A stretch of DNA of 64,000 nt from Tyzzerella sp. UBA1042 (GTDB taxonomy: Bacteria > Bacillota > Clostridia > Lachnospirales > Anaerotignaceae), in assembly GCA_002316675.1 (NCBI GenBank), contig DCDZ01000028.1:3002-67001 (forward strand), read 5' to 3'. Under the pieces are notes generated by a model. It was not told the DNA's origin and did not search any database. It was given only the letters and a program-made list of their open reading frames with translations. Shown piece after piece: positions 13,125-43,133 of this stretch. The translations under genes were made by a program, and so were the position numbers. Numbering within the stretch: position 1 is the stretch's first letter; every line of letters begins with the position of its first letter.

Positions 13125-13342
13125 CTCTCCTGAGAGAGAAGGGGTAAATGTATCAGCCTTACTTATTTTGCTGGCAAAATATGTGAAAGGAATGAATTTT
13201 TTGTAAAATTTTGATAAATCCTGTGCAATTGTATGCTTTTCTTATTGTTTTATGTAATTAAGTTTGTTACAATATTTAAGATGAAAATGTAATCTGCGGT
13301 TCGGACAACATAGAGCTTATAAGTGTGTATTAGAAAAAGAGA

Positions 13343-16300
13343 GTGAATGTGATGAGAGAAAAAATATCATTAAAAAATCACAAGGGATATACATTGGTTG
13401 AAGTGCTGATTGCAGTGGCGATTATCATTATTATTAGTATCATTGCCATACCCGCAGTAGGCAGTTTGAAAAAAAGTCTGACATTAACGAAATATGATGA
13501 TACTGCACGGCAGATTTATCTGGTTTCTCAAAATAAGCTTACAACAATGAAATCCACAGGAACGTTGGGTGTTTTTTTAGATGCAGTAGAAAAAGACTAT
13601 GCAGCCCAGAAGCTTACGCAAGAGCCACAGGATTATAACGATGAAAAAACGGATTGGAAAGATCTATACTATTTTACCGATTCCGATACTGTTTTTGTAA
13701 ATTATATCATGGGTACCAGTTCTGTTTTAACGGCTTCCATGGAAAACGAAGGGCATTTTTTGGTTGAGTTGAACCCGAAAACAGGAGATGTTTACGGTGT
13801 CTTTTATGCGGAGAAAGCGTTTACATATGATGACATACAAGAACTTTTTTCCAGAGCGAAAAAAGCCCGCAAAACAAAAATGCTTGGCTATTATGGAGGT
13901 ATTTCGGAATTTTCCGCAGGGGAGGAACTGCCGACAGAGTTTACACCCACGGCAGGTATTGTGAATAAAGAGGATTTATATCTCAATATTGAATTAACGG
14001 GTATGCGACCGTTTATTAAAACACAAAATAAGCTTTTGGTATCCGTGACCGTAACGGACGAAAGCTATGATGCTGCAAAGCCCACAGAACATACCTTTAC
14101 CAAAGAATTAAAAGGCGGAACAGATTTTACAATTCAAAAGGCAAATTGCCAAATTCCGGTGCTTTTGGATAGTATCGAAGGCGGCAAGAACAGTTTTAGC
14201 AACATTACCGAGGGTAAGTTGACAGCAGGGGATAATATTCATATAACGGTATCTGTCACCTATGATGATGGAGAGGATATTCATATTACCGGCAATACCA
14301 TTGCCTCCACAAATAGTCTTTTTGCGAAAAAAGAGGTGGAAGGCGATTTAGAGGTGCAGTATGTACGTCATTTGAGGAATTTGGATGAGTCTGTTTATGA
14401 AGTAAATAAAAGTGAGGAAAGTAAGCCGATTACTGTTACCCAGACAAAACCCATTGATTATGATTATACCCAATGGGAAGATGACGCAAGAATTCCCGGA
14501 AATACAGGTGACAATCCTTATTCCGCTGACTTTGCACCTCTGAAAAACCTAAAATTATTTGACGGCATGACGTTTGATGGAAATAACAATGAAATTTTGA
14601 ACTTTAAGATATCCGGAGGCCATTATACCGGTTTATTTTCTAAATTAATAAATTCCCATATGAAAAACATGAAATTAGTCAATTTCAGTGTTACAGGGAA
14701 TTCTTATGTTGGTGCGTTGACCGGTCAGATCACAGGGGGAAGCATTACGAACTGCGGCGTATACCTAACAACGAGAAATGAATTTAATCAGCCGCTTCCG
14801 GATATGCCCGAGCGGGTTCAGCGTTATCAAGTAAAAGGGTCTCCTGAAGATTCTAGTTATGTAGGCGGCATGGTGGGGCAAGCAACCCAGCGTACTGTTA
14901 CCAAAGATTCCTTTGCTGCAATAAATGTTTCCGGTACAGCTTCTTTTATAGGAGGTTTTTGCGGACGATATGATAATGGTTCTATTACAAATTCTTATTC
15001 CTCAGGCGACGTTACCGGAGGACTTTGGTATACAGGCGGCTTTCTGGGAGAACTGAATAATTCTTCCATCAGCCAATGCTATTCTACCTCCGATGTAGTT
15101 TATGTGCTTGGTTCTGCAGGAGGGTTCGTTGGTCGTGCAGTTAACGGAAGTATTTCTGATTCCAATTCCTATGGCCTTGTGAAAAAAAAGGATGGCACTT
15201 CGGTTGTCGGGACCTCCGGAGGATTTGTAGGTGTTACGACCTCGACGATTCGTAATTGCAACTTTCTGAGGCAGCCGAACTACAATGCTGCTTATGAAAT
15301 AAGCCCTGCAGGTGTGAAGGGGCAAGGATTTTCTGGTTTAAAACCAGAAAAAGGTAATTCACCAAGTGATTGCTATCCTTATAAGGATGAATTGGTAGGC
15401 AACAGTATTCCTTTTAAAATGCTGGCGAGAGAGGGCGGGGCAATCATACCCCATTATGGTGATTGGCCGGGAGAGATGAAGCTGCAGACCTCTTTGGTAT
15501 ATTATGAAAAATATGCCACTGCCGATCAGGATGGGAATTATTACGGCTATTATGCCGAAACAAGCTTAACTGATGATGGGAGCGCATATGATTCAGGGAA
15601 AATCAATGGCTGGAGGCTAAATACTTTACGGCAGGAGCCTTGTGTTGAGGATGGGTATGCATTGATGACGATTTACGAACTAGGCGGTTTCCAATATGAG
15701 TTAAATGGGGATTTACCTAATCCAAAGAGAAATTCGGTGAAAGTTACAGATTCAGCAACGCCCACAGCCGAAGAAGCAACAAAAATTATGAATAGGGTTT
15801 CTTTGGTGTTCACCAATATTGAAGAAAGCAATATAAAGTATACCATTTCCAATGCAAGGGTTTATCGTCTGCCGTTTGCTTTGCAGATGACAGATAGAAA
15901 TACTGCGGCAAGGTTTTATGACCGGTTGGAAATCAGCTATGAAGGCAAGGGCAAAAAGACAGAAGAGTATACATTCTTCTATTGCCCTGACTTTGCAAAG
16001 AACGCCATCAATCCGGATATTAGTAGTACTGCGGCGGACACACCGCTGAATCCAACAGGGGATAAAAACCCGATTTCGGTTAGAAGCCCTCGTCATATAA
16101 ATGCTTTGGCGCGTGCGGCTTATTATTGGAACACCACAAAATGGACAGAGAGCACCGATATAAGGTATCATTTTGTGCAGGAAAATGACATTGATTTTGA
16201 ACTTTATACGAAAGAATACTGCGGAAAAAGCTATAATTTAATGGATGCTTCCAGCAAAAACACCTATAGAAACAGACCCATTGGCCGCCCTAATTCTCAG

Positions 16301-17374
16301 GCTTTTACGGATCCCAATGGGGATACCTATACACCCAGTAATTTTAGAAATCGTTATAATGGTCAAGGGTATAAGATTATAGACTATAGATGTATTACCA
16401 CAAAGGCAGATAGTTATCAGTTTACAGGGCTGTTTGGAGAAGTTCAGCAGGCAACCCTAAAAAACATTGTGATGATTGCCTCTGATCCCGAGAATGAGAG
16501 TGGATACGTTATTTCCCAATATAATGATGATAAGCATCCCGGCGTGGGAGCCTTAGTTGGTTTGGTTTATGTGGATATAGGAGGGAAGGATTACGAGGAC
16601 GGAACCCCCGCAACGGTGTCCAATTGTTCCGTGTCTGGCTACGTGGTGAGGTACGAGCCAGCTGGCGATGCAAACCATCCCAGTGCAGTGGGTGGTTTAG
16701 CAGGCTATAACTTCGGGAAAATTGAAAACAGCAGCGCAGTGAATAAGCTGGTAACTGCATCTGAAAAAGCTGGCAGACAGAACCGATATATTGGCGGTTT
16801 GGTTGGTTCTATGAATGGTCAGGGAAGTATCACAAATTGTTATGCAGGTGGTCTGGTTACAGTTGCAGATACTGGAAGACGGTCAACAAAAACAAACTTG
16901 GCAGGTATTTGTGCAGGTTTTGAAAATATCTATGGTGCATTTGATAGCAGTAGCGATAAAAGAAAAATGCTTATTAAAAACGTCTATTCCTATTGTAACC
17001 TGGAAAAAAATGAAAGAAATATGAGGACGTATGCTGTAGTAAATACCGAGGATAAGATAACTTTGTTCAGTAGAAGTGGCTATTATCTCTCCTCCAATGT
17101 GGAGAATATCACATCCTTAGAGGATAGAACTATCTCTCGAGGAATGAGCTTTGATGAATTGCGTGGGCTATCCTTCCAGGCCAGCGGCACTGCTGCGGCC
17201 TCAGGACGTGCCTCCGCAGACAATACCCATCCTTGGTCCAAGGATTTGGAATCCATTGCCTATTCTTACCCTGCAGTGGTAGTTGACCCAAGAAAGAACA
17301 ATACCACCTATGTTCATTATGGCGATTGGTCTTTGGCTAGGGATAGTGCTAGGGAGGAAAGGTTGGTACAGTGA
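13343..17374 (+). CDS. giant modular type IV pilin-like protein with a GLUG-type repeat module (candidate pilus adhesin)
   Basis: The N-terminus ...SLKNHKG|YTLVEVLIAVAIIIIISIIAIP is a prepilin cleavage/methylation motif with Glu at +5. It is followed by about 1300 aa containing about 10 spaced (Y/F)xGG(L/F/M)(V/C/L)G units (YVGALTGQ, YVGGMVGQ, FIGGFCGR, YTGGFLGE, AGGFVGR, SGGFVGV, AVGGLAGY, YIGGLVGS). The start could be GTG 13343 or ATG 13352. Confidence 0.85.
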   Translation: MNVMREKISLKNHKGYTLVEVLIAVAIIIIISIIAIPAVGSLKKSLTLTKYDDTARQIYLVSQNKLTTMKSTGTLGVFLDAVEKDYAAQKLTQEPQDYNDEKTDWKDLYYFTDSDTVFVNYIMGTSSVLTASMENEGHFLVELNPKTGDVYGVFYAEKAFTYDDIQELFSRAKKARKTKMLGYYGGISEFSAGEELPTEFTPTAGIVNKEDLYLNIELTGMRPFIKTQNKLLVSVTVTDESYDAAKPTEHTFTKELKGGTDFTIQKANCQIPVLLDSIEGGKNSFSNITEGKLTAGDNIHITVSVTYDDGEDIHITGNTIASTNSLFAKKEVEGDLEVQYVRHLRNLDESVYEVNKSEESKPITVTQTKPIDYDYTQWEDDARIPGNTGDNPYSADFAPLKNLKLFDGMTFDGNNNEILNFKISGGHYTGLFSKLINSHMKNMKLVNFSVTGNSYVGALTGQITGGSITNCGVYLTTRNEFNQPLPDMPERVQRYQVKGSPEDSSYVGGMVGQATQRTVTKDSFAAINVSGTASFIGGFCGRYDNGSITNSYSSGDVTGGLWYTGGFLGELNNSSISQCYSTSDVVYVLGSAGGFVGRAVNGSISDSNSYGLVKKKDGTSVVGTSGGFVGVTTSTIRNCNFLRQPNYNAAYEISPAGVKGQGFSGLKPEKGNSPSDCYPYKDELVGNSIPFKMLAREGGAIIPHYGDWPGEMKLQTSLVYYEKYATADQDGNYYGYYAETSLTDDGSAYDSGKINGWRLNTLRQEPCVEDGYALMTIYELGGFQYELNGDLPNPKRNSVKVTDSATPTAEEATKIMNRVSLVFTNIEESNIKYTISNARVYRLPFALQMTDRNTAARFYDRLEISYEGKGKKTEEYTFFYCPDFAKNAINPDISSTAADTPLNPTGDKNPISVRSPRHINALARAAYYWNTTKWTESTDIRYHFVQENDIDFELYTKEYCGKSYNLMDASSKNTYRNRPIGRPNSQAFTDPNGDTYTPSNFRNRYNGQGYKIIDYRCITTKADSYQFTGLFGEVQQATLKNIVMIASDPENESGYVISQYNDDKHPGVGALVGLVYVDIGGKDYEDGTPATVSNCSVSGYVVRYEPAGDANHPSAVGGLAGYNFGKIENSSAVNKLVTASEKAGRQNRYIGGLVGSMNGQGSITNCYAGGLVTVADTGRRSTKTNLAGICAGFENIYGAFDSSSDKRKMLIKNVYSYCNLEKNERNMRTYAVVNTEDKITLFSRSGYYLSSNVENITSLEDRTISRGMSFDELRGLSFQASGTAAASGRASADNTHPWSKDLESIAYSYPAVVVDPRKNNTTYVHYGDWSLARDSAREERLVQ

Positions 17375-17580
17375 GACTGTATGAGCAAGAGCGATGGAAT
17401 AATTGGAATTATTATGGAAACGGTGTCCTGTTTGACATTGGGAATACAAGCATTACAGAACTTGAAGCTCGGGGTAATCCGGTAGGAGAATATTCCTACT
17501 ATGAGTATTATGGATATGGCATTGTGTTTGACAGCGCCTTTGCAGAGTATTTATCTGATTGGGAAGCGGAATCTGTGTAG
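17371..17580 (+). CDS. small acidic Tyr/Asn/Gly-rich hypothetical protein, translationally coupled to the giant pilin gene
   Basis: The GTG start overlaps the TGA stop of the upstream gene (GTGA). It is 69 aa with no signal peptide and no recognisable motif. Confidence 0.4.
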   Translation: MRLYEQERWNNWNYYGNGVLFDIGNTSITELEARGNPVGEYSYYEYYGYGIVFDSAFAEYLSDWEAESV

Positions 17581-17832
17581 TCATTTGAATACACATCTGG
17601 ATGGAAAAAAAGAGACTGTACGGAGGCCAGTGTCGTTATCAAATTTAACATCATATACGTTGTCAAATAAAAATGCAAATGGTATAATTGTCAAAGCTTT
17701 TAGGGTTGACAGTGGATATTTAGAAAGCGTTACTGCGCGCAATCAAGAAGATGGTTCAGAGTATAAGTTTGTATGTTGTATATAGCAACAATACGTTCAC
17801 CTTCCAGTCTTAAAGAAACAGAGGTGCCTTTT

Positions 17833-18600
17833 ATGAAAAATATAAACAAAAAACTTAAAAGTGAAAAAGGTGCCTCTATCCTTCTTGCCCTCATGCTTTT
17901 TCTTGTCTGCTTTATGGTGGCCTCCGTTATTTTAAGCTCTGCCACAGCAAATGCAGATAAGCTTCACCAGCGGGAGGATAACCAAAGGGAGTATCTGTCT
18001 GTCAGTTCGGCTGCAACCCTTCTGCGGGATGTTTTGGGTGGAATAGAATATACCGGTTGGGAAAACAATAAGGTGTTTTATTATCAAGATGAGTCGGCAA
18101 TAAATTTGGGAACGCAAGAGGATATACCGGAAAAATGTGAGGCCATGGTGTATACTGAGGAGAAAGAAGCCAGAATGAGGGCAGAGCTGGAAAGAGCAAT
18201 TTATCAAGCATTTTCCTCTCATACGAAATGGTATACGAAAGTACCCGTTGCTGATGTATTGACAAAGGAGTTCGTAATATCCGGAGAGGGTATGGAGGAG
18301 ATTAAGGTTGTATTGTCTTTAGATACAAAAACCTATTATGTGACCTGCGAGCTCACGCAAAACGATAGTTCGGGAACGAACAATGCAATGACAGTGCTAT
18401 TTAAGGCGGCGGTTCACAAGGATGACTCTCCCCAAAGCCGTGAATATACGGATGAAAATTTTACATATTGGGAAGCAGTTCCTAATGCTGATGGGGAAGG
18501 CACCCACTGGGAAAGCAGGCTGTATAGAATTGTGGAATATAAAATTGTGACTAAAATCAGCTATGATGCAGGAACCATCACAAAGGGGGTATACCCTTGA
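17833..18600 (+). CDS. pilin-like minor component lacking Glu5 (PilX/GspK-like role possible)
   Basis: MKNINKKLKSEKG|ASILLALMLFLVCFMVASVIL has a basic leader, a Gly and a hydrophobic helix but no Glu at +5. The gene sits inside the pilin gene cluster. Confidence 0.6.
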   Translation: MKNINKKLKSEKGASILLALMLFLVCFMVASVILSSATANADKLHQREDNQREYLSVSSAATLLRDVLGGIEYTGWENNKVFYYQDESAINLGTQEDIPEKCEAMVYTEEKEARMRAELERAIYQAFSSHTKWYTKVPVADVLTKEFVISGEGMEEIKVVLSLDTKTYYVTCELTQNDSSGTNNAMTVLFKAAVHKDDSPQSREYTDENFTYWEAVPNADGEGTHWESRLYRIVEYKIVTKISYDAGTITKGVYP

Positions 18601-18908
18601 AATTAGAAAAAAAACGTAGAAGCATAAAAGGAGAAACACTGCTGGAAACCTTGGTCGCCATTCTTATTCTTACTATTTCCGCCATGATGCTGGCAGAGAT
18701 GACGGCTTCTTCAGTGAGAATTAACCGCACTGTAGAGAAGATAGACAAAGAATACCGGGAAAATGTGTCTGCAGCTGAAAAAAGGAAATTCTATAAAAAT
18801 GAAACGGTTACAATCAAAACAACTGATAAAGAATATACCTATAAGGTTGAATATTATGGAAAAGCAGATGGGCTAACCTCCTATAAAGCGGAGGAAGGGG
18901 AGATATGA
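18597..18908 (+). CDS. minor (pseudo)pilin
   Basis: MKLEKKRRSIKG|ETLLETLVAILILTISAMML has a prepilin-type leader with Glu at +5. The start overlaps the previous stop. Confidence 0.7.
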   Translation: MKLEKKRRSIKGETLLETLVAILILTISAMMLAEMTASSVRINRTVEKIDKEYRENVSAAEKRKFYKNETVTIKTTDKEYTYKVEYYGKADGLTSYKAEEGEI

Positions 18909-18909
18909 A

Positions 18910-19407
18910 ATGAAGGTGCTTCAAAAAATTGCAAATTGCAAGGGGTTCTCTTTGTTAGAATCTATGGCGGCATTACTCATTATCTCCATTCTAACCGTGG
19001 GAATTACCACCGGGGTAAACGCCGCATCTAAAATTTATCAACAATCCCTTTTTGTTTCCGAGGGAGACATATTGGCGGCTACGGTGGATACGGCACTATC
19101 CGATGTTCTGCGCTTTTCCTCAGAAATTAGTGAGGAAGATGGTGTGGTCAGCTTTACCAACGCAAACTACAGCGTAAAAAAGGGCCATTTGCTGTCGGAA
19201 AGCGGTTGGCTGTATTTAAATTTGCGGGGAGAGGAGGATGCACCTTTGGTTTTATTGCTGAATAATGGGGTTTATTCTTCTATGGAAATTAATTCTTTTC
19301 AACTAAGCTATGCGGAAGGTGTTTTTTCCGGCAGCTATGAAATAAAAAGCAAGAAGGATGATACGCTGGTAAAAAAGTACGCTTTTCATTTCCGCACGCT
19401 AAGCTGA
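18910..19407 (+). CDS. minor (pseudo)pilin
   Basis: MKVLQKIANCKG|FSLLESMAALLIISILTVG has the canonical G|F...E5 prepilin motif. Confidence 0.75.
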   Translation: MKVLQKIANCKGFSLLESMAALLIISILTVGITTGVNAASKIYQQSLFVSEGDILAATVDTALSDVLRFSSEISEEDGVVSFTNANYSVKKGHLLSESGWLYLNLRGEEDAPLVLLLNNGVYSSMEINSFQLSYAEGVFSGSYEIKSKKDDTLVKKYAFHFRTLS

Positions 19408-19444
19408 TTCCGGTCAATGCGCTGACAAGGAGGCGAAAGAGAAA

Positions 19445-21160
19445 ATGAAATTCAAACGACTTGGAGATATGCTGACCTCTACGGGAATGATTACGGAGGA
19501 ACAGCTGAAAGTTGCATTAAATAAACAAAGGGATACGAAAAACCGCTTGGGGAAAGAGTTAATTGAAGAAGGCGTTATTTCTGAGGAGCAATTAATTCAT
19601 ACGCTAAAGCTTCAGCTTGGATTGGATTCCATTGATCTGTCCACGGTCAATATACCCAGTGCGCTTTCTGAAATCATTCCGAAAAAAATGGCCAATAATT
19701 ATGGCCTTGTACCTGTAAAGCAGGAGGGGGACTCTCTGTATGTGGCAATGAGCGACCCCTTGAACTTTGTTGCCCTGGAGGATGTAAAGGCAGTAAGCAA
19801 AAAGCGCATTATACCCTTAATTGCCACGGAGGAATCCATACAAAGAAATATTGGCTCCTTATATGGCAATGAGGGTGCCGCCAGAGCCATTGAAGAAATG
19901 AAGCGAGAGATGAATGATGCCCCTGCGGCCGTTATTTTTGGCGATTCGTTCCTTTCCAATAACATAGATAACGATGAACAGTCTGCCCCAACCATTCGTT
20001 TGGTGAACTCCTTAATTGAACGTGCGGTATCGGAGCGTGCCAGTGATATTCATATTGAGCCTGCGGAAAATGAGGTTCGTGTGAGAATGCGTATTGACGG
20101 CTTGCTTCGTCAGATTATGATTGTGCCGAAGGATTTACAGTCCTCGGTCATTTCCCGCCTTAAAATTATGGGCGGCATGGATATTACAGAACGCAGAATC
20201 CCCCAAGACGGACGCTCTAACGCTAAGGTGAAAAAAGCGGATATCGACTTGCGTATGTCGACCTTGCCCACCATTTACGGAGAAAAACTGGTAATCCGTC
20301 TTTTGGATAAAAACACACAGCTTTTGGATAAAGCGAAAATCGGCTTGACAGGGGAGGATTTGGAGAAATATATGCGGCTGATCAACCAAAAGGGCGGCGG
20401 CGTGGTTTTGATTGCCGGTCCCACAGGCTCCGGTAAATCCTCCACACTGTATACAATGATTCGTGAACTAAATACAGAGCAAAGCAATCTGATTACATTG
20501 GAAGATCCTGTGGAATATAATATTGCCGGCATCAATCAAGTGCAAATTAACGAAAAAACAGGAATGACCTTTAGCGGAGGCCTGCGGGCAATCCTAAGGC
20601 AGGATCCGGATATTATTGCGGTGGGCGAAATCCGTGACGGCGAAACGGCGGAAATTGCCATGCGTGCGGCAATTACGGGGCATTTGGTATTATCTACCAT
20701 CCATACCAATAGCTCCATAGCCACCTTGGACCGCCTTTTGGATATCGGTGTTGAGCCCTATCTTATTTCCAGTGCCCTCAATGGCGTTGTTTCCCAGCGT
20801 CTTGTGCGTAGAATCTGCCCCCATTGCCGTAAGGAATATGAGCCTACCCAAGAGGAGCTGGCCAGCATTGGCCTTTCCCATGAAAACCACGGTTTTTATC
20901 ATGGCGAGGGCTGTCCCATGTGCTTTGGTACGGGATATCGGGGGAGAGTGGCAGTTTTTGAAATTTTGGTTATGGATAGAAAAGTAAAGAATGCCATATC
21001 AAGCGGTGCAAAAAGAGAAGAATTGGCGGAAATTATACACAGCCATAAAGGCTTTGTTGCCCTAGCAGATAATTGTCGCAGGCTTGTTTTGGAAGGTGTA
21101 ACCACTGTTGAGGAGGCAAAAAGAATTACGAATTCAGAGGATTATGAATATGAAAGTTAA
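19445..21160 (+). CDS. pilB: type IV pilus assembly ATPase PilB (GspE family)
   Basis: N-terminal T2SSE_N-like repeat (ITEEQLKVAL...), Walker A GPTGSGKSST, Asp and His boxes, and a CPHC...CPMC tetracysteine motif. Confidence 0.92.
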   Translation: MKFKRLGDMLTSTGMITEEQLKVALNKQRDTKNRLGKELIEEGVISEEQLIHTLKLQLGLDSIDLSTVNIPSALSEIIPKKMANNYGLVPVKQEGDSLYVAMSDPLNFVALEDVKAVSKKRIIPLIATEESIQRNIGSLYGNEGAARAIEEMKREMNDAPAAVIFGDSFLSNNIDNDEQSAPTIRLVNSLIERAVSERASDIHIEPAENEVRVRMRIDGLLRQIMIVPKDLQSSVISRLKIMGGMDITERRIPQDGRSNAKVKKADIDLRMSTLPTIYGEKLVIRLLDKNTQLLDKAKIGLTGEDLEKYMRLINQKGGGVVLIAGPTGSGKSSTLYTMIRELNTEQSNLITLEDPVEYNIAGINQVQINEKTGMTFSGGLRAILRQDPDIIAVGEIRDGETAEIAMRAAITGHLVLSTIHTNSSIATLDRLLDIGVEPYLISSALNGVVSQRLVRRICPHCRKEYEPTQEELASIGLSHENHGFYHGEGCPMCFGTGYRGRVAVFEILVMDRKVKNAISSGAKREELAEIIHSHKGFVALADNCRRLVLEGVTTVEEAKRITNSEDYEYES

Positions 21161-22196: not shown

Positions 22197-22230
22197 ACGG
22201 CCTTTGCCGTAAAGGAAAGGGGAGATATCC

Positions 22231-23427: not shown

Positions 23428-23601
23428 GGCTTTCCTAAACTTACCAGTGCAAACCGGCATCCTTTGCATTGCCAAAAGTAGGCACTGCACGTAAACTATA
23501 AAAGCACCATTGCCCTCTAAGGGGTATTAAGTTGGTATTTTTTGTGAGAACCCGCTCACAAATGATATATTTAATGTTGATGAATTAAGGAGGTACATAA
23601 T

Positions 23602-23997: not shown

Positions 23998-24080
23998 TGA
24001 TCTGATTAAAGCAGAAAAGCAGCCTATTTGCATCTAAAGGCAGCGGGTGATTTTACCCTCTAACCCCAATCCGATTACCA

Positions 24081-24120
24081 CGATAGAACTGGGGCGGGTT
24101 GCAGTTCTATCGTCGTTTTT
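24081..24120 (+). terminator. rho-independent terminator after pilA
   Basis: cgatagaactg (24081-24091) pairs perfectly with cagttctatcg (24102-24112), followed by tcgttttt. Confidence 0.6.
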
Positions 24121-32537: not shown

Positions 32538-32590
32538 TCTTTAACTAGGAAATTTTATTTATAAAATAAAGAAGGGCGAGGTGTAGTTTT

Positions 32591-33049: not shown

Positions 33050-33074
33050 GCGATATATTCTGATAGAAAGGGGA

Positions 33075-33455: not shown

Positions 33456-33459
33456 ACAA

Positions 33460-35091: not shown

Positions 35092-35314
35092 TTTCTCACC
35101 CTCCCCATAAAAGATATAAATTAGTATAGCATATTTGGTTAAATATATCAAATTTAAAGGAGGGAATATAGTAAAATTATTTTTAAGCATGATTTTTTTG
35201 TACACTTTCTGTTTGAACTATGTATATAAGGAATAAAAAATACGTTAGAATCCTGCAACAGGAATGTTTTGATAAAAAAATTTTTTTTTATCGGAAATTT
35301 ATGTTTATTTATTA

Positions 35315-35345: not shown

Positions 35346-35728
35346 TTGATTATAGAAATTGTTAATTTAGGATATTTTTAGATTTGTTTACATTAAAATT
35401 TTGATGTTAATTTGCAAAATTTCATTATGATAGATAAGGAATTCGGAAAAAACTAATAATAAAATTCAATTGTCAGCACTATATTTTTACTTAATTATTT
35501 GTCTGACAATATAAAGAAAAAGCTTAATTGCATAGAATTTGTGAAAAAAAATACTGAATTGTGTGAATGAAAACTCAAGGTACTAAGCTTATTGCTATGC
35601 TTTATAATAAAACATAGTGCGAAATAAGTGTAAACATAATAACCATATAACATTATCTGGAAAGGGGGATGTGAATTTAAGGAAAAGTCAAATAAATGTC
35701 TATTTACTAACAAGGAAGGTGAGTGTTC

Positions 35729-37087
35729 ATGGACTTATTAATTAAAAATGGTACGATTGTAACAGAAAAAGAAATGTTCCAAGGCGATATTGCAGTAAAA
35801 GATGGAATTATAGCAGAAATTGGAAAAGATCTCTCAGACATTTCTTGTAAAAATGTTGTAGATGCAAAGGGAAAGCTTGTTTTGCCCGGCGCAATTGATG
35901 CACATACACATCTTGCTATGCCTTTTGGTGGAACGGTTTCTGCTGATGGCTATTATGCGGGCACCAGAGCAGCTGCTTGTGGCGGCACTACCACAGTATT
36001 TGATTTTGCTTTGCAGGATTTTGACGAAAGAATGATGGATGTCGTTAGAAGAAGAGATGCTCTTGCTGCACCGGAGGCCGCTGTGGATTATGCTTTTCAT
36101 ATCGGCGTAAAGGATGTTCATTGTGATCTTTTGGATTCCATGAAAGAGGCTGTTGAATTTGGCGTTCCCTCCTTTAAGGTTTTTATGGTTTACGATTTTG
36201 GTGTAACAGACGGTGTATTTTATAGAGTGCTTGAAAAAGCAAAAGAAATTGGTGCACTCATTTGTGTTCATGCGGAAAATAATGAATTAATCAACACCCT
36301 TGTAGAGAGATATATTTCAGAGGGAAAAACAAGCCCTTGGTATCATTATATGTCCCGTCCCGAATTTGTAGAGGCGGAGGCGGATTTCAGAGCAATTTCA
36401 TGGGCAAAATCTCTGGATGCTCCACTTTACATAGTACATTTAGCGAATGAAAAAGGTGTTGAATATGTAGCGAAGGCAAGAGAAGAAGGATATCGCATTT
36501 ATGCGGAAACTTGTCCTCAATATTTGCACTTCACCAGTGATGTTTATAAAAGAGAAGACGGCAGAAATTTTGTTTGTTCTCCTCCTATGAAGGGGCAAAA
36601 AAGTCAGGATGCACTTTGGAAGGCAGTGAAACAGGGTATCATCGATACGATTGCCACAGACCATTGCCCATTCCAACAGTCTGAAAAAGATTGGGGCAAG
36701 GATGATTTTAGAAAAATTCCCAATGGCTGTGCAGGCGTGGAAAATATGTATCCTTATATGCTTGACAAGGCAAACAAAGGAGACATAACTTTTATGAAAG
36801 CTGTTGAAATATGCTCCTCCAATCCGGCACGGATTTTTGGATGTACACAAAAAGGCAGTTTAACGGTAGGCAAGGATGCGGATATTGTTATTTATGATAC
36901 AGAAAAAGATTTTACAATCAAATGCGAAAATATGCATTCTGATTATGACCATACAATTTGGGAAGGAACAAAACTTCATGGCTATCCTGTGAAAACCTTC
37001 TCAAGAGGACGCCTTGTTTATGATGAAGGTGAATTTAAGGGCGAACCCGGATGGGGCAAGTTGATCAAAAGAAGGTTGAGCGAATAA
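35729..37087 (+). CDS. dihydropyrimidinase / D-hydantoinase
   Basis: MDLLIKNGTIVT...LVLPGAIDAHTHLAMPFGG...GGTTTVFDF, plus VHAEN and ATDHCPF motifs of cyclic amidohydrolases. Confidence 0.9.
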   Translation: MDLLIKNGTIVTEKEMFQGDIAVKDGIIAEIGKDLSDISCKNVVDAKGKLVLPGAIDAHTHLAMPFGGTVSADGYYAGTRAAACGGTTTVFDFALQDFDERMMDVVRRRDALAAPEAAVDYAFHIGVKDVHCDLLDSMKEAVEFGVPSFKVFMVYDFGVTDGVFYRVLEKAKEIGALICVHAENNELINTLVERYISEGKTSPWYHYMSRPEFVEAEADFRAISWAKSLDAPLYIVHLANEKGVEYVAKAREEGYRIYAETCPQYLHFTSDVYKREDGRNFVCSPPMKGQKSQDALWKAVKQGIIDTIATDHCPFQQSEKDWGKDDFRKIPNGCAGVENMYPYMLDKANKGDITFMKAVEICSSNPARIFGCTQKGSLTVGKDADIVIYDTEKDFTIKCENMHSDYDHTIWEGTKLHGYPVKTFSRGRLVYDEGEFKGEPGWGKLIKRRLSE

Positions 37088-37112
37088 AATCTAATAAGAT
37101 GGAGAGGGTTAT

Positions 37113-38711
37113 ATGAGTAAATATACGCAGCAGGAAAAGAACGGGCTTTACGAATTAACGCCGGAAGCTGCTTCCGAACTGAGTAACTCTGAGTATTACA
37201 ATCAGGATTTAGCTCCCACCACGGTAAATGAAAGAACATGGAATGCGGTAAGCATCTGTAACCTTTGGGTAGGTATGTCGATTTGTGTTCCATCCTTGGC
37301 ATTGGCCTCCTCCTTGGTTGCATTGGGCATTTCACCCTTACTTGCAGTTTTTAATGTTATTTTGGGAAACTTGATTGTGTTAATTCCAATTCAGTTAAAT
37401 TCTAAAATCGGAACCAAATATGGCATTCCGTTTCCCATTTTTTCCAGAATGACATTTGGAAATAAGGGAACACAGCTGCCGACATTTTCCCGGTCAATCA
37501 TCGCTTGCGGTTGGACCGCAGTACAAAGCTGGGTTGGCGGCGGTGCGGTTGCTGCTTTAATTGGTGTTGCAATTCCAATGTTTGCTGATCAAAGTATAAA
37601 GGTTTCTCTTCCCGGAAACGACGGTGTTGTTGTAGGACAGTTGATTGGATTCTTCCTGTTTATGCTTTTTGTATTTTTGGTTGCATACAACGGGATTGAA
37701 AAGGTAAAATGGGTTCAAAATATTGGCGGTCCTATTCTGATTATTGTAATTTTAGGCTTGCTGTTATGGTCTTTAAATGCAATTTCAACCTCGGGCCATT
37801 CTATGGCAGATGTATTTGCTGTTGGCAATGATGAGGTACTGATTGAACAAAATGGTGGATTTGCCTTTGTATATATGGCTGGGCTAACGGGTAACATTGC
37901 CTTTTGGGCAACCATGGCTCTCAATATTCCTGACTTCTCAAGATATGCAAAGAGCCAGAAAAGCCAGTTTATGGGTCAGTTGACAGGTATGCCTATTCCT
38001 ATGGCATTATGCGCTTTTGTTGGTGCACTGTTTGCTCAGGCTACAAAATATACAGTTGGCGAAGCTTTATTTGACCCCACAAGTGTTTTCTACTATGTAG
38101 ACAATAAGCTGATGGTTATCATCTGTGCCATAGGTGTAATTATGGCTACCATTACAACTTGTGTTGCGGCCAATGTGGTTGCTCCTGCCAATGGTTTCTC
38201 CAATATTGCACCTAAGAAAATCAGCTATAAGAAGGGTGTAATCATTACTTGCCTTATCGCAACCTTTATCACACAGCCTTGGTGGATTTATGGTTCCGGA
38301 TCCAGCTATATTTTCAATTGGCTGAATAATTATGGAACCATCATTGCGCCGGTTGCCGCAATTTTAATTGCTGACTACTTTATCTGTAAAAAGCAGCTGG
38401 TTGATGTTGCTGGGTTATATCAGGGTGAAGGCGGAAGATATTGGTATAGCGGTGGATGGAACAAAAATGCAATGATTGCATGGGTAGTTTCCTTTATTAT
38501 TCCACTGGTGGGCAATACTGCATTGAAATATCAAGCAGGTTCAGGCTTAAAGCCAAACTTCATACAATTCTTGGCTGCAAATGGGTACGCTGTATCTTTC
38601 ATCATTGCCATTGTTGTTTATGTAGCTTTGATGAAATCCACGGTAGGCAAGGATCACTATGGATTTGTATCAGAAGAAGAGCATGAGAGTTTTACAATGA
38701 ACGGAAATTAA
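37113..38711 (+). CDS. NCS1 family nucleobase (uracil/cytosine/allantoin-type) permease
   Basis: 532 aa with about 12 TM segments. The N-terminal motif NQDLAPTTVNERTWN is typical of NCS1 transporters. Confidence 0.88.
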   Translation: MSKYTQQEKNGLYELTPEAASELSNSEYYNQDLAPTTVNERTWNAVSICNLWVGMSICVPSLALASSLVALGISPLLAVFNVILGNLIVLIPIQLNSKIGTKYGIPFPIFSRMTFGNKGTQLPTFSRSIIACGWTAVQSWVGGGAVAALIGVAIPMFADQSIKVSLPGNDGVVVGQLIGFFLFMLFVFLVAYNGIEKVKWVQNIGGPILIIVILGLLLWSLNAISTSGHSMADVFAVGNDEVLIEQNGGFAFVYMAGLTGNIAFWATMALNIPDFSRYAKSQKSQFMGQLTGMPIPMALCAFVGALFAQATKYTVGEALFDPTSVFYYVDNKLMVIICAIGVIMATITTCVAANVVAPANGFSNIAPKKISYKKGVIITCLIATFITQPWWIYGSGSSYIFNWLNNYGTIIAPVAAILIADYFICKKQLVDVAGLYQGEGGRYWYSGGWNKNAMIAWVVSFIIPLVGNTALKYQAGSGLKPNFIQFLAANGYAVSFIIAIVVYVALMKSTVGKDHYGFVSEEEHESFTMNGN

Positions 38712-38883
38712 AGGCTTTAGAAATTTTGAACGCAATGCTTGTTCATAACGGACAGTGTTTTATAACACATATGTATTGCATTGCGGTGCAATACACTTTG
38801 GACTATCCCCTTGGCGTAAAGCCAAGAATCCAAACGCCCGTTTCATAAAGGTTGAAAAGATAAGTGATAGAAAGAAGGAATGA

Positions 38884-40149
38884 ATGATGTACAGAAGCAG
38901 TTTAAAGAGAACAAGTGAAAAAATCCATACTTTTTCTAAGTTTGGCGATGCCGGCCACGGCGGAATTACAAGATATTCTTTATCCGACGAGGCGAAACAA
39001 GCAAGACAGTACTATGTAGAAAGAATGACGAAAATAGGAGCAACCATCGAAACAGACGATTTTGCCAATATGTATGCCACATTGCCGGGCAGCGATTCCA
39101 ATGCAAAAAGAATTGTTATGGCTTCCCATGCAGACTCTGTTAAAAACGGCGGAAACTATGACGGTATCTTGGGTGTTATCGGTGCCATGGAGGTTTTGGA
39201 AACAGTTGCGGCGGAGAAAATTCCCCATAAGCATCCTTTGACGGCAATGATCTGGACAAATGAGGAGGGGTCTCTTTATCCCCCTGCAATGATGAGCTCC
39301 GGTGTTGTTTGCAATGCGTATTTGCCAAAAGAAATTGCAAAAAATTTCAAGGAAGAAAATATGCTTGCATCTAAGAGTGTTTTAGATAAAGTTTCTACCT
39401 TTGGTGAAGCTTTGGAGAAAAGCGGTTTGAAAGGTGCAAAGGAAAACCGTTTGTCACCCGATAAATACAAAGCAATGTTTGAATTACATATTGAGCAGGG
39501 CCCTATTTTGGAGAATGCCGGCTTAGATGTTGGCGTGGTAACTTGTGTTTTGGGTATGTTTAACACCAGAATAAAATTCTATGGTCAGGCAGCTCATGCA
39601 GGCACATTCCCCATGGAATTCCGCCAAGATGCACTTTTTGCGGCAGCACAGGTACTTTGCTATCTTCATGCAGAAATCGATAAGCTTGGACATCCGGAAT
39701 TGGTATATACTACAGGCGAAATGGTTGTACATCCTTGTGTACATACGGTAATTCCTGATTATGTAGATTTCTCCATTGATGTGCGTCATGAAGATCCGGA
39801 GGTTCTGAAAAAGGTTTACCAGATTGTAAGAAGCCTGGAAGGAAAAGAATGGGCAAAATGCCGTTGTGAAGTTGTGGATCAATGGAATCGTGATACCGTT
39901 TATTTTGACAAGAAGCTAGTAGGTTATGTGAAAGAGGCCGCCGAAGAGTTGCATACCAAGCATCAATATATCAATAGTGGTGCGGGGCATGATGCACAGT
40001 TTGCGGCTTATGTATTACCGACAACCATGATATTTGTATCTTCTGAAAAAGGATTGTCTCATTGTGAACCAGAGCATACAAGTGATGAGGTTTGTAATGA
40101 AGGAATCAGCGTATTGCTGAATGCAGTTTTAAAGTGTGATAAAGAATAG
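38884..40149 (+). CDS. M20-family Zn-dependent amidohydrolase (N-carbamoyl-amino-acid / beta-ureidopropionase type)
   Basis: GGITRYSLSDE..., ASHADSVKNGGNYDGILGV, WTNEEG and HIEQGPILE motifs match the allantoate amidohydrolase / AmaB family. Confidence 0.85.
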   Translation: MMYRSSLKRTSEKIHTFSKFGDAGHGGITRYSLSDEAKQARQYYVERMTKIGATIETDDFANMYATLPGSDSNAKRIVMASHADSVKNGGNYDGILGVIGAMEVLETVAAEKIPHKHPLTAMIWTNEEGSLYPPAMMSSGVVCNAYLPKEIAKNFKEENMLASKSVLDKVSTFGEALEKSGLKGAKENRLSPDKYKAMFELHIEQGPILENAGLDVGVVTCVLGMFNTRIKFYGQAAHAGTFPMEFRQDALFAAAQVLCYLHAEIDKLGHPELVYTTGEMVVHPCVHTVIPDYVDFSIDVRHEDPEVLKKVYQIVRSLEGKEWAKCRCEVVDQWNRDTVYFDKKLVGYVKEAAEELHTKHQYINSGAGHDAQFAAYVLPTTMIFVSSEKGLSHCEPEHTSDEVCNEGISVLLNAVLKCDKE

Positions 40150-40188
40150 TTTTGTGAAAACAGAAAATTTTTATGACTAAGACTGCTG

Positions 40189-40223
40189 GGAGGCGTCTGA
40201 ACTTTGGGACGTCTCCTTCTTTC
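40189..40223 (+). terminator. candidate terminator after the amidohydrolase gene
   Basis: ggaggcgtc (40189-40197) pairs with gacgtctcc (40208-40216) with one mismatch, followed by a T-rich ttctttc. Confidence 0.4.
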
Positions 40224-40430
40224 ATCACATTTTGAATAAGAAACAATGGAAAGAAGGTTGATTTGAAAAGAAAAACGCAATTTGGGGATGAGGAATTTAA
40301 CAAAAAAGTTCTTGTTCATTTCGGCTTCTGAAGATAACAGAGACAAAAATAAGTTTTGGTTTGCCGTAAAAAGGAATCGGTGAAAGTTTAGGTGATACTA
40401 TGCAGATTGATCCTGAACAGATGAGAGGAG

Positions 40431-41717
40431 TTGAAGAATTTGAGTAAAGTAATTAAATCAACATATGTTTCTGAGGCTGTTGATGGCTTTACCCCAAGAA
40501 CCGCTATGGAGGAAGCTTCAAGGTGCTTATTATGCCATGATGCCCCTTGCAGCAAAAGCTGTCCAGCCGGCACAGATCCTGCAAAATTTATTCGCTCTAT
40601 TCGGTTTAGAAATGTTAAGGGTGCGGCGGAAACGATCAGAGAGAACAATGTTTTGGGTGGCAGCTGTGCCAGAGTCTGTCCTTATGATCGGCTTTGTGAA
40701 GAAGCTTGCAGCAGATGCGGCATTGATAAACCCATTGAGATTGGAAAATTACAAAGATTTGCTGTGGAGCAGGAGGAAGCTTTACATATGAATGTACTGC
40801 AGGTTCCCGCTACAAAGAAGGGTGTAAAGGTTGCCTGTGTTGGCTCCGGCCCCGCCTCTCTTGCTTGTGCGGCAATGCTTGCGCAAGAGGGATATGAGGT
40901 TACGATTTATGAAGCTGAGGAAAAGGCCGGCGGCGTTTTAACTTATGGGATTGCCCCCGCCAGATTGCCGCAGTATGTTGTTGATCATGATATTAGTACA
41001 GTGAAAAATTTAGGCGTAAAGTTCATTTTCAATACAAAGATTGGAAAAGATATTTCCATGGAAGCACTGCAAAAAGAATACGGTGCAATATTTATCGGTG
41101 TCGGCTTATGGCAGGAAAAACTTCCGGAAATCCCCGGTGTGGGCCTTCCCGGTGTTCTGGCGGCGGCAGATTTTTTGAAAAAAGCAAGAAAGTCAGGGGG
41201 TTCGTATCATCCCGGTAACAGGGTTGTTGTAATCGGCGGCGGCAACGTTGCTATGGACTGCGCTGTTTCTGCAAAACTATTGGGCGCAGAAAAGGTGGAT
41301 ATTTATTACAGAAGAACCATTGAGGAAGCACCCGCTGATATGGCGGAATTCCAGTATGTGCTGTCTCTGGGTGTTTCCATTACAACTAACTTTGCGCCTG
41401 CTGAGGTGCTTGGCACAGACAAAGTGGAAGCAATGCGCTTTAAAGGCAGAGACGGTGTATCTGAGGCAAAGGTTATGGTGGATACAGTTATTTTTGCAAT
41501 CGGACAAGGTGCAGATGATATGACAGAGTTAGCGCCCTTTGCACTGAATGAAAAAGGTTTAATTAAAGTTGATGATTTCTGCAAAACAAATATTGACGGT
41601 ATTTTTGCAGGTGGTGACGTGGCTTTAGGCGGGAAGACTGTTGTGGAAGCTGTTGCATCGGGTAAAATTGCGGCGGTACATATGATGAATTATCTTGCTA
41701 AGAAAGAGGTGAAGTAA
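40431..41717 (+). CDS. preT: NAD-dependent dihydropyrimidine dehydrogenase subunit PreT-like (glutamate synthase small-subunit fold)
   Basis: [23 protein letters not shown] (Fe-S) then [14 protein letters not shown] and [14 protein letters not shown] dinucleotide folds. TTG start after a GAGAGGAG RBS. Confidence 0.85.
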
Positions 41718-41718
41718 A

Positions 41719-42972
41719 ATGGGGATCAAAAAAGACTTATCTATTGATTATTTAGGTGTGAGATGTGAAAATCCTTTTTTCTTGTCCTCATCTCCTGTAG
41801 GCAGTAATTACGAAATGGTTGCCAAGGCTTTTGAAGCCGGCTGGGGCGGTGTTTTTTACAAGACAATCGGTATTTTCGTTGCGGATGAGTGCTCACCTCG
41901 TTTTGACCATGTGCAAAAAGAAGGGATGCCTTGGCTGGGCTTTAAGAATATGGAGCAGATTTCCGATAAGCCTACGGAAGTCAACTTTGAAAATATGTAT
42001 AAGCTAAAAAAGGCTTATCCCGAAAAAATCATGGTTGCTTCTATTATGGGCTCCAATGAGGAAGAGTGGCGTAAGCTGGCAAAAATGTGTGATGAAGTTG
42101 GTGTGGATTTAATTGAAGGAAACTTCTCTTGTCCTCAGATGACTTCCCATGCTATGGGCTCCGACGTTGGTACAAACCCAGACTTGGTGCGGGCGTATTC
42201 CAAGGCTGTGGCGGAAACCACAAAAATTCCTTTTATCGCAAAAATGACACCGAATATTACAGATATGACCATTCCTGCCATAGCAGCAATTGAAGGCGGC
42301 GCAAAGGGCATTTCTGCAATCAATACCATTAAATCCATCACAAATATTGACTTGGAAAATATGACGGCGATGCCCGTTGTAAACGGAAAATCCTCCATTT
42401 CCGGCTATTCCGGTGCGGCGGTGAAACCCATTGCCCTGCGCTTTGTGGCACAGCTGCTGCAAAATGAGAAGCTGAAAAATGTGCCTCTTTCCGGCATTGG
42501 CGGTATTGAAACATGGAGAGACTGCTTGGAATTCCTGCTGCTTGGATGCAGAAATCTGCAGGTAACTACATCTGTGATGCAGTATGGTTACAGAGTGGTT
42601 GAAGATATGTCTAATGGTCTGATGCACTGGATGGATGAAAGGGGCTATCATAAGCTGGATGATTTCATCGGATCAGCATTGGGCAACATCATTCCTGCGG
42701 AAGATTTGAACCGTGATTTTAAAATTTTGCCTGACTTTAGCCAGACAAAATGTGTTGGTTGCGGCAGATGCTACATTTCTTGCTACGATGCAGGCCATCA
42801 GGCAATTGATTGGAATGCGGATAAGCGCAGACCGGAATTAAACGAAAAATGCGTTGGCTGCCATCTCTGTCTGAATGTATGTCCTGTTGCAAATTGTATT
42901 ACACCGGGCGAAATCAAATGGAAAGACGGCAGAGAAAAAGTAGGCGTTGCTTTAAAGAAGTCTTATGAATAA
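41719..42972 (+). CDS. preA: dihydropyrimidine dehydrogenase subunit PreA-like (DHOD-fold plus two 4Fe-4S motifs)
   Basis: DHOD/DHPD-like barrel ([29 protein letters not shown]) and C-terminal [11 protein letters not shown] and [12 protein letters not shown] clusters. Confidence 0.9.
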
Positions 42973-43029
42973 TCAGAATAAAAAGTTATAAATCTCTTTT
43001 CCCTCAAACATAAAACATACTTAAGAAGG

Positions 43030-43067
43030 CATCCCGTTTTGCAAAATGCAGACGGGGTGTTTTTTTG
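43030..43067 (+). terminator. candidate terminator after preA
   Basis: An imperfect stem catcccgttttgca...tgcagacggggtg is followed by a T7 run. Confidence 0.5.
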
Positions 43068-43133
43068 CGTTGTCATTGACCATCGGTTCCGAATAGGACG
43101 AGAGCATTTTTTATATAAATAAAAAAGGGGGGG

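Follow-up and report, generated by a model that had tools for sequence, protein, structure and literature searches.

The sigK gene in the 64,000-nt stretch of DNA analysed here (the window) is split by what is probably an old, domesticated, skin-like intervening element that has become fixed in the Anaerotignum propionicum clade. sigK is the gene for a late-sporulation sigma factor, and direct reading of the sequence places the interruption at codon Tyr214/Val215, where 34,555 bp are inserted (window 13122–47676). The element is site-specific: it lies in the Tyr214 codon, and at its ends a shared TAC is framed by arms that form an imperfect inverted repeat. An operon of a DUF6870 gene and three large serine recombinase genes makes up one end, and the remaining 30 kb is host-type DNA.

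Both sigK halves are on the same (minus) strand. The 5′ part reads ...GISRSY and then continues into element-encoded SPVILG.... When the two parts are joined in silico they give a full-length gene that equals, and is colinear with, the intact sigK of relatives L003 and L013, confirming the proposal of an earlier note that the 34.6 kb block is a sigK-intervening element. These two relatives have empty sites, with sigK between spoIIAA-AB-sigF and MarR-U32-OMT-mltG; an intact sigK beside MarR was seen in 34 further metagenomic relatives, together with spoIIA on those of the contigs that extend far enough. A split at the same codon, with conserved inverted-repeat arms, is shared by at least 12 Anaerotignum loci. 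The break follows ...SRSY in the window and in all of L004–L012 and L034, while L024, L025, L037, L039 and L042 carry the inverted arm and the sigK 3′ piece, the latter again between MarR and the element. The insertion point is in region 4.2 (...SRSY/VSRIEK), a position we take to differ from the skin sites.

The arms of attR and attL are imperfect inverted repeats of each other. On the attR side, other species have TTTAGCCC..CAGG.GAG/TAC, and the attL-side arm is TCTYCTGWTATTATAGGGCTAAAC in nine other loci; the arms are conserved across species within fast-evolving surroundings. A short shared core (TAC) with inverted-repeat arms of about 25 bp is the arrangement expected of a skin-type element.

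Table 1. Features of the split sigK gene and its intervening element (window coordinates).
Feature	Position	Strand	Support
sigK 3′ segment, (Y)VSRIEKKALKKLNNALKD and stop, region 4.2 C-terminus	13065–13124	−	direct reading
attR: common core TAC (13124–13122) and ~25 bp element-side arm ...CCCCTTCTCTCTCAGGAGAG	13122–13149	−	
Giant minor pilin, N-terminal methylation motif and GLUG repeats	13343–17374	+	Pfam
Three small pilus-associated/pilin-like genes, two of three with prepilin N_methyl motif	17773–19407	+	Pfam
PilB assembly ATPase, PilT retraction ATPase, PilC platform	19445–23427	+	Pfam T2SSE, MshEN, T2SSF
Major pilin PilA, prepilin peptidase PilD, PilM, PilN, PilO	23602–27231	+	Pfam; PilN by position
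acrC-acrB-acrA, predicted acryloyl-CoA reductase (propionyl-CoA dehydrogenase, ETF beta/alpha)	27597–30695	+	NCBIfam NF042972, NF042971, NF042970
Acl-like hot-dog protein, family III CoA-transferase, two further Acl-like proteins, nitroreductase	30948–33996	+	PDB, Pfam
MerR/GyrI-like regulator, divergent from pyrimidine operon	34228–35205	−	Pfam
Dihydropyrimidinase, NCS1 permease, carbamoylase-type M20 amidohydrolase, PreT, PreA	35723–42972	+	NCBIfam, Pfam
Conserved promoter-like block GAATAGGACGAGAGCATTTTTTATATAAAT with SpoIIID-consensus box (43094–43102)	43091–43120	+	alignment of loci
DUF6870 small protein, first gene of recombinase operon	43134–43397	+	Pfam PF21757
Three tandem large serine recombinases, Rec1, Rec2, Rec3	43436–47630	+	Pfam Resolvase, Recombinase; phrog_95
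attL: core TAC (47679–47677) and element-side arm TCTCCTGTGATTTTAGGGCGAAATC	47652–47679	−	
sigK 5′ segment: pro-sequence, regions 2–4.1, up to ...GISRSY	47677–48318	−	comparison with relatives

The element contains 30 genes, all of which could be assigned (Pfam on all 30 ORFs, NCBIfam, PDB), and none of its intergenic gaps exceeds about 520 bp. Twelve of the genes form a type IV pilus operon (13343–27231, plus strand) that holds the Gram-positive set of PilB, PilC, PilD, major and minor pilins, PilM/N/O and PilT, each with Pfam support except PilN, which was assigned by position and conserved order. Orthologues of the giant GLUG minor pilin range from 1486 to 1932 aa, and the three small pilus-associated genes keep the same order in L024, L025 and L028.

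Downstream, the adjacent AcrC, AcrB and AcrA exceed their NCBIfam equivalog cut-offs (684 against 640, 523 against 475 and 696 against 600 bits), and the acr entry of the window is 93% identical to a cluster containing the annotated AcrC of A. propionicum and A. neopropionicum; acrCBA is thus predicted to encode an acryloyl-CoA reductase, AcrABC, of the C. propionicum type. The three Acl-like proteins match beta-alanyl-CoA:ammonia lyase (PDB 4mtu; E values 7.5e-7, 5e-15 and 1.7e-7). The genes at 35723–42972 are predicted to be a reductive pyrimidine catabolism operon leading from uracil to beta-alanine. In this operon TIGR02033 and NF006183 were matched above cut-off and NF006771 and TIGR01879 at subfamily level. 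PreA and dihydropyrimidinase pass equivalog cut-offs, PreT is supported at domain level only, and the M20 enzyme is placed only at the level of the carbamoylase/allantoate-amidohydrolase subfamily.

Searches of the 30 element ORFs against Pfam and PHROGs detected no relaxase, coupling protein, T4SS, replication/partition, packaging, capsid, tail or lysis families. PHROGs matched the three recombinases to integrase phrog_95. Its other matches were to families of unknown function: one for the MerR regulator and, marginally (E about 3e-4), two at the GLUG protein's pilin leader. Prophage-derived content was rejected for want of phage structural, lysis and replication genes in these searches, and an integrative conjugative or mobilisable element because relaxase, coupling protein, T4SS and replication/partition genes are absent. 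The composition is native: GC is 0.40–0.435 in the element and 0.42–0.43 in the flanks, the tetranucleotide correlation is 0.85–0.91 between cargo and flanks and 0.92 between the two flanks, and GC skew has no break at either junction. The earlier description of the cargo as a pilus locus and a catabolic island with its own regulator, free of phage or conjugation genes and similar to the flanks in base composition, therefore holds. Elsewhere in the window, a prophage-like island at 53.5–64 kb has a tetranucleotide correlation of 0.51–0.62.

The element is variable in its pilus module, which is present in the elements of the window, L024, L025, L032, L040 and L042 and missing from those of A. 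neopropionicum and strain MB30-C6 (about 21–22 kb). The recombinase-only version that the earlier note had suggested looking for was seen in no locus. The note's alternative, an old split with a cargo that changed later, fits better than its adaptive gene carrier. A small recombinase cassette may have split sigK first, with the host operons being captured chromosome that moved in afterwards, a possibility that we consider real, if somewhat short of even. It concerns origin only and is compatible with an old domesticated element. Besides the variable module and the native composition, two findings elsewhere favour it: Candidatus Metalachnospira carries this 12-gene pilus unit in ordinary chromosomal surroundings, and another taxon has preTA in an ordinary context. 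However, no cassette-only sigK site was found in the loci examined, all occupied sites carrying acr and pre genes, and no capture mechanism is evident. In the cargo tree, pilus-positive L025 groups with pilus-negative L037 (bootstrap 0.93), which for that pair favours loss of the module over gain.

The recombinase operon ends within about 50 bp of attL. Rec1 (538 aa) has all three Pfam domains and is the only one with Zn_ribbon_recom, Rec3 (522 aa) has two Pfam domains and a Cys-rich stretch, and Rec2 (327 aa) is short at its C-terminus, lacking the C-terminal domains in this clade. DUF6870 precedes the three recombinases at every locus compared and is possibly a directionality factor; in B. 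subtilis the directionality factor is encoded by a small gene immediately upstream of spoIVCA (PMC6957869). The promoter-like block upstream of DUF6870 is nearly invariant in 10 of 10 loci, inside spacers that are otherwise unalignable. It includes a box matching the SpoIIID consensus TAGGACAAGC (PMC11180830), and TAGGACRAG occurs once in the whole window, at this box. The sigK gene's own promoter has GGACA boxes and CATACAATA; the CATACAAT found there is not matched by the −10-like TATATAAAT of the cassette promoter. The box suggests mother-cell control of the operon; in C. difficile, the skin directionality factor is controlled by SpoIIID/sigmaE (PMC5025042).

For an old domesticated element, the recombinase operon would be turned on in the mother cell during sporulation, probably through SpoIIID working with a mother-cell sigma factor at the conserved TAGGACAAG box. 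At least one of the recombinases, perhaps aided by DUF6870 as the directionality factor, would join attL to attR, freeing a 34.6 kb circle and restoring sigK, with the element retained in the forespore. We infer such an excision, and hence loss of the element from the mother cell, indirectly: from purifying selection on the recombinases and both sigK parts, from the precise empty site of L003 and from the SpoIIID-consensus box. Over its history the element would have shed its original mobility genes, and host operons would have entered or left it.

If the insertion were instead frozen, with no further excision, sigK would be a pseudogene and the lineage asporogenous or using another route. The truncated Rec2 is in keeping with this, and excision junctions (the attP pattern) were found neither in metagenome nor in viral contigs. 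To our knowledge, sporulation is poorly documented for several Anaerotignum species, and spores are rarely reported for some. It is made improbable, however, by several observations: dN/dS between split lineages is 0.02–0.06 for the sigK 5′ part; in every species compared, the detached 3′ part (18 codons, 57 bp) is still in frame, with its sequence and stop codon preserved; the recombinases (dN/dS 0.09–0.25) and DUF6870 (0.06–0.18) are under purifying selection; the att arms and promoter block are conserved amid fast-evolving surroundings; and the neighbouring spoIIA-sigF is intact.

In a second species the entire cargo is colinear on a single 33 kb contig, and for every species pair the dS of the cargo (e.g., 0.46–0.49) equals that of the flanks (0.37–0.54). 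Recombinase identity matrices match host groups, and the recombinase tree mirrors the host tree. By these sequence comparisons, element and chromosome have diverged together, with inheritance alongside the chromosome across the genus. Together with the selection on the recombinases, the empty sites and the shared split codon with its conserved arms, they argue that the element is old, vertically inherited and not recently moving. In trees built from linked genes close to the insertion, L003, whose site is empty, falls within the split genomes in 300 of 300 bootstraps (1151 aa), the alternative receiving 1% (2283 aa); its empty site probably represents precise loss of the whole element in one nested lineage.

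The same data count against a currently mobile adaptive island that delivers pilus and catabolic genes between strains and for which sigK is merely the attachment site. Such an island would have the integrase cassette and att arms that are present here, the DUF6870 and three-recombinase cassette also turns up next to other metabolic genes on gut contigs that are unrelated, and in a sister species the same sigK codon holds a different element (ParA/ParB/RepA_N/HEPN genes) that is polymorphic between strains. With cargo and flanks equally diverged in all pairs, recombinases that follow the host, a native GC and tetranucleotide signature, and no transfer, replication or packaging genes, it is nonetheless highly improbable, and the earlier notion of an adaptive gene carrier, in the sense of a mobile vehicle, is not sustained. 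A chromosomal inversion or translocation that parted the sigK halves without any element is refuted by the empty sites and att structure, for although the cargo resembles native chromosome and the distant L015 has a pilus locus beside an intact sigK, the halves share a strand, the flanks are exactly contiguous in empty-site relatives (L003 and L013 lack the pilus and catabolic genes at that site, where their presence would have implied rearrangement), and inverted-repeat arms with a shared core lie at the ends, next to serine recombinases.

The Anaerotignum element has its nearest precedents in skin, in the non-phage gin element and in the heterocyst excision elements. In Anabaena/Nostoc, the nifD, fdxN (with serine recombinase XisF) and hupL elements are excised developmentally in a terminally differentiated cell, restoring a gene needed late in differentiation; they are not obviously phages and are vertically inherited. 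We know of no central catabolism among their cargo. They belong to another phylum and have other target genes and recombinases. A related case is described in PMC11249958. Skin (B. subtilis SpoIVCA, Skr; C. difficile CD1231, CD1234) likewise interrupts sigK, which is restored by excision, and has a large serine recombinase gene at one end (PMC5025042, PMC6957869). Its directionality factor is encoded by a small upstream or nearby gene and it is under sigmaE/SpoIIID control in the mother cell, whereas in Anaerotignum DUF6870 is a candidate only and the control is predicted from the SpoIIID-consensus box. A skin element is what remains of a prophage and has a single recombinase; the Anaerotignum element is free of phage genes, combines DUF6870 with three recombinases in tandem, carries host-type operons and, unlike skin, has been inherited vertically across a genus.

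The gin element in gerE of Bacillus cereus ATCC 10987 (GirC/GirX) is also not a prophage and has three serine recombinase genes and inverted-repeat att sites, and its recombinase and directionality factor are expressed during sporulation (PMC5595907). It differs in its target and in being an exogenous island of low GC, in which most genes are unknown and R-M and recJ are also present, compared with the native composition, core-type metabolism and pilus of the sigK element. Its recombinase genes are dispersed (a girAB operon, girC elsewhere) rather than tandem, and it is identical between strains, implying recent transfer, whereas the Anaerotignum element co-diverges with its host. SCC-type cassettes share several serine recombinase genes per cassette (paired or triple, ccrAB/ccrC) and non-phage cargo, and composite SCC elements grow by accretion (PMC5595907), but they sit at the end of rlmH without disrupting it, move horizontally and have no developmental role.

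Elements that interrupt sporulation genes are usually described as prophages or their remnants, and in gin, the only non-phage case published, most genes are unknown. What the Anaerotignum element carries can be recognised as host physiology; it includes the predicted acryloyl-CoA reductase, the defining enzyme of propionate formation in the genus, and has persisted throughout the radiation of the clade. Comparison is possible across three graded states (element complete, element lacking its pilus module, element precisely lost) and, with the conventional mobile element at the same codon in the sister species, they make up a natural series in which to ask how a site-specific parasite turns into a fixed developmental switch. 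Both A. propionicum and A. neopropionicum are in use for producing propionate, and the acr operon of these species is on DNA predicted to be excisable; in A. neopropionicum this appears to be the sole complete acrylate-pathway acrCBA operon (PMC9205015). A more doubtful, though possible, extension is that housekeeping DNA is eliminated by programme from a terminally differentiated cell and that the cargo locks the split sigK in place, since loss of the element from the germ line would delete central energy metabolism. If true, about 1% of the genome (assuming about 3.1 Mb, as in two complete Anaerotignum genomes) would leave the mother-cell chromosome at each sporulation, and a former parasite would have been made irremovable by the host genes it holds hostage.

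The sigK gene is divided into two co-oriented pieces, both on the minus strand. TAC (47679-47677 and 13124-13122) is the only sequence common to both junctions, which sets the size of the insert at 34,555 bp. On the element side, each junction has an arm (TCTCCTGTGATTTTAGGGCGAAATC next to the sigK 5′ piece; next to the 3′ piece, the complement of ...CCCCTTCTCTCTCAGGAGAG), and the two arms form an imperfect inverted repeat.

The genus was identified as Anaerotignum by a scan with the joined SigK. Two relatives (L003 and L013) carry an intact sigK exactly between spoIIAA-AB-sigF and MarR-U32-OMT-mltG. A scan using MarR from the flank as query added 34 metagenomic relatives classified as having intact sigK beside MarR, and the longer contigs among them likewise show the spoIIA arrangement. 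At nine loci of the genome scan (L004-L012), and in a genome reached through an NCBI PreA match (L034), sigK is split at the identical codon; among the occupied loci are those of A. neopropionicum DSM 3847, A. propionicum DFI.7.94 and the complete MB30-C6 genome. The right-end layout, sigK5′-Rec3-Rec2-Rec1-DUF6870-PreA-PreT-M20-NCS1, is constant wherever a contig passes the junction, and the left junction (MarR, sigK 3′ piece, inverted arm) was seen at five loci (L024, L025, L037, L039 and L042). A 33 kb contig from another species (L032/L033) carries the entire cargo with gene order unchanged. The exact empty sites and the att arms rule out a chromosomal rearrangement in place of an element. 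In a distant Lachnospiraceae MAG (L015, 3184-12582), an intact sigK stands immediately downstream of another type IV pilus locus, whose PilB is 43% identical, and U32 and OMT come next; this adjacency may be coincidence or an old linkage.

Positions of features in the window
Feature	Position	Strand	Remark
sigK 3′ piece	13124-13065	minus	translation (Y)VSRIEKKALKKLNNALKD-stop
Type IV pilus operon, 12 genes	13343-27231		Pfam
acrCBA	27597-30695		AcrC, AcrB and AcrA each at NCBIfam equivalog cut-off
Acl-like hot-dog genes	30948-33455		
Rec2	45068-46051		
sigK 5′ piece	48318-47677	minus	ends ...LGISRSY, then runs on into foreign sequence
sigK-spoIIAA spacer	48319-48444		
Glyceraldehyde-3-phosphate dehydrogenase paralogues	50925-51932, 52397-53416		tandem, ~60% identical
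Prophage-like island	53451-64000		GC 0.32
Tyrosine integrase, two ORFs	53581-53973, 53940-54488		within island
M15 peptidase	61987		within island
Small-terminase-like HTH protein	63234		within island

All ORFs of the insert were scanned against Pfam, PHROGs, NCBIfam and PDB, and none belonged to phage structural, lysis, replication, partition or conjugation families, which bears out the earlier note's description of a pilus and catabolic cargo free of phage and conjugation genes. The pilus operon encodes a 1343 aa GLUG-repeat minor pilin (1343 to 1932 aa among loci), three small pilin-type genes, PilB, PilT, PilC, PilA, PilD, PilM, PilN and PilO. The acrCBA products are predicted to form the acryloyl-CoA reductase/ETF complex known from Clostridium (now Anaerotignum) propionicum, and AcrC shares 93% identity with a 90% cluster whose members include the annotated A. 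propionicum, A. neopropionicum and MB30-C6 proteins. According to a genome-scale model, A. neopropionicum has just one complete acrC-acrB-acrA cluster (PMC9205015). Downstream lie a family III CoA-transferase, three hot-dog proteins and a nitroreductase. The three small hot-dog ORFs were rejected as true beta-alanyl-CoA:ammonia lyases and are named Acl-like, because a PDB search found them only distantly similar to the same-genus Acl2; the window has three such genes, A. neopropionicum (L037) two and MB30-C6 (L039) four. A MerR/GyrI regulator is divergent from a pyrimidine operon encoding dihydropyrimidinase, an NCS1 permease, a carbamoylase-type amidohydrolase, PreT and PreA. A combined pathway is plausible, with a link that we infer from uracil through beta-alanine to acyl-CoA metabolism. 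The recombinase module, DUF6870 and three tandem large serine recombinases, forms the last 4.5 kb of the insert. Nowhere in the insert is an intergenic gap longer than ~520 bp. An Rfam scan of the whole window gave no match.

The element is old and vertically inherited, as judged from sequence divergence. In every species pair, synonymous divergence of the cargo equals that of the flanks; between L007 and L009, for example, dS is 0.49 for PreA, 0.49 for PreT and 0.46 for M20, and 0.54 for SigF, 0.40 for SpoIIAB and 0.37 for GapA1. The recombinases and DUF6870 evolve far faster (at 98% identity for SigF and PreA, Rec3 reaches 69%), their identity matrices match the host groupings, and their dN/dS of 0.06-0.25 indicates purifying selection. 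Rec2 is C-terminally short (314-327 aa) in the window and the A. propionicum clade, lacking the zinc ribbon and coiled coil, and is still under purifying selection; in other clades it is longer: the L034 call has 469 aa, and the tblastn matches at L004, L005, L007 and L009 stretch beyond those of the window's clade.

Base composition was described in the earlier note as like that of the flanks, and this held in k-mer and GC-skew analyses: GC and GC skew are unbroken at both junctions, and the tetranucleotide correlation is 0.85-0.91 between cargo and flanks and 0.92 between the flanks. A prophage-like island (53.5-64 kb), serving as an internal control for foreign DNA, reached just 0.51-0.62. 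Together, synonymous divergence and native composition led to the rejection of a recent horizontal carrier, and do not support the 'adaptive gene carrier' of that note in the sense of a mobile vehicle. The island is low in GC, lies 5.8 kb from sigK and carries a tyrosine integrase split in two ORFs, an M15 peptidase and a small-terminase-like HTH protein; in L009, too, sequences homologous to the integrase pieces lie beside the gap genes. Both glyceraldehyde-3-phosphate dehydrogenase paralogues occur in nearly all Anaerotignum loci with contigs reaching that far.

Element size varies among relatives. In A. neopropionicum (L037, overlapping L004, LRVM01000007.1), acrC directly follows the sigK 3′ piece and the element is ~20.8 kb, without the pilus operon; the MB30-C6 element is alike (~22.0 kb). 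Comparing relatives for presence and size of the block, as had been proposed from the first reading, revealed both empty sites (L003, L013) and these smaller, pilus-less forms. The pilus operon is present in the window, in A. propionicum-type contigs and at L024, L025 and L042. The module was likely lost at least once, since the cargo tree joins L025, which has the pilus operon, with L037, which lacks it, as sisters (bootstrap 0.93). The 12-gene pilus unit is found in an ordinary chromosomal setting in Candidatus Metalachnospira, as is preTA in another taxon. In trees built from linked genes only, the empty L003 is nested among split-sigK genomes in 300/300 bootstraps (right flank, 1151 aa), and a clade of split genomes without L003 appears in just 1% of replicates when both flanks are used (2283 aa). 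The most economical reading of these trees would be a precise secondary loss of the entire element in L003.

In split lineages, the 5′ part of sigK has a dN/dS of 0.02-0.06, equal to the values against the intact gene, and the detached 3′ part (18 codons) is undamaged in all species. Because the two-piece gene and the recombinases are constrained and the att arms conserved, the data are most simply read as a sigK that would be rejoined by excision when needed. A search of metagenome and viral contigs for the attP junction of an excised circle, using a degenerate arm-core-arm pattern, gave no match; this negative is weak, since the pattern omits the window's own arms and minority junctions are seldom kept by assemblies. 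The 33 kb contig L032/L033 stops near the right end of the element, yet includes 32 bp of sigK, and so its end is uninformative on excision.

The ten loci examined all have, just ahead of DUF6870, the block G[A/C]ATAGGAC[A/G]A[G/A]-(3-4 nt)-TTTTTTATATAAAT, while the remaining spacer (160-470 bp) is unalignable among them. In the PreA-DUF6870 spacer of A. neopropionicum (L004, ~15925-16376) there are three tandem ~76 bp repeats (CCACTCACTGCCCAAGATAGGGCAGGCAGCGAAGCTGGCTTTTGCAAAGCAAAAGTGATGA), found in none of the other spacers examined. Use of the cassette promoter by sigmaE is possible: its -35-like G[A/C]ATA agrees with the sigmaE consensus, but its -10-like TATATAAAT differs from CATACAAT at sigK's own promoter. 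Throughout the genus, the sigK promoter, in the sigK-spoIIAA spacer, has inverted GGACA boxes (ATGTCC-N10-GGACA) and a CATACAATA -10. Of the 10 positions in the high-affinity SpoIIID site TAGGACAAGC (PMC11180830), 8-9 are present in the conserved block, with TAGGACAAG as the putative SpoIIID box. TAGGACRAG occurs once in the 64 kb window, where 0.43 copies are expected by chance, a count not significant by itself; the case for the box lies in conservation at a fixed position, not in the number of matches. Known systems offer precedents for such control. The B. subtilis recombinase gene spoIVCA requires sigmaE and SpoIIID. Its expression is sporulation-specific (PMC5595907), sigmaE and SpoIIID are likewise needed for the directionality factor CD1234 of C. 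difficile (PMC5025042), and the B. subtilis factor Skr is encoded by a small gene right upstream of the recombinase (PMC6957869). By analogy of position, DUF6870 is a candidate directionality factor.

In its working, with excision as proposed here, the element would resemble skin, but it lacks skin's prophage-remnant feature. It shares with gin (PMC5595907) a non-phage nature and three serine recombinases, and differs in target gene, cassette layout, native composition, vertical inheritance and identifiable core-type cargo. As vertically inherited, non-phage developmental elements, the heterocyst excision elements are the closest analogue. Full-text literature searches turned up nothing relevant on sigK in Anaerotignum or propionicum.

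The DUF6870 and three-recombinase cassette also occurs on unannotated gut 'Bacteriophage sp.' scaffolds. One of these (L041, MT836038.1, 1-14834), deposited as 'UNVERIFIED Bacteriophage sp.', has the cassette beside cobT, cobU, cobS, a cobC-like phosphatase and a deaminase (cobalamin salvage); a scan of ten ORFs revealed no recognisable phage genes, so the scaffold probably represents bacterial DNA within a virome. In a sister species known from gut metagenomes, the identical sigK codon is occupied by another element, whose arms differ (among L061-L082, L092 and L097; e.g., L074, 10420-20420). Its genes encode ParA, ParB, RepA_N/DUF6017, an Apea-like HEPN protein and an AbiEii-like ATPase, and it is strain-polymorphic, sigK being intact (attB form) in L062, L064 and L065. 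Given this second occupant, the sigK codon is a recurrent target of site-specific elements, and the element of the A. propionicum clade looks like one stripped of its mobility genes.
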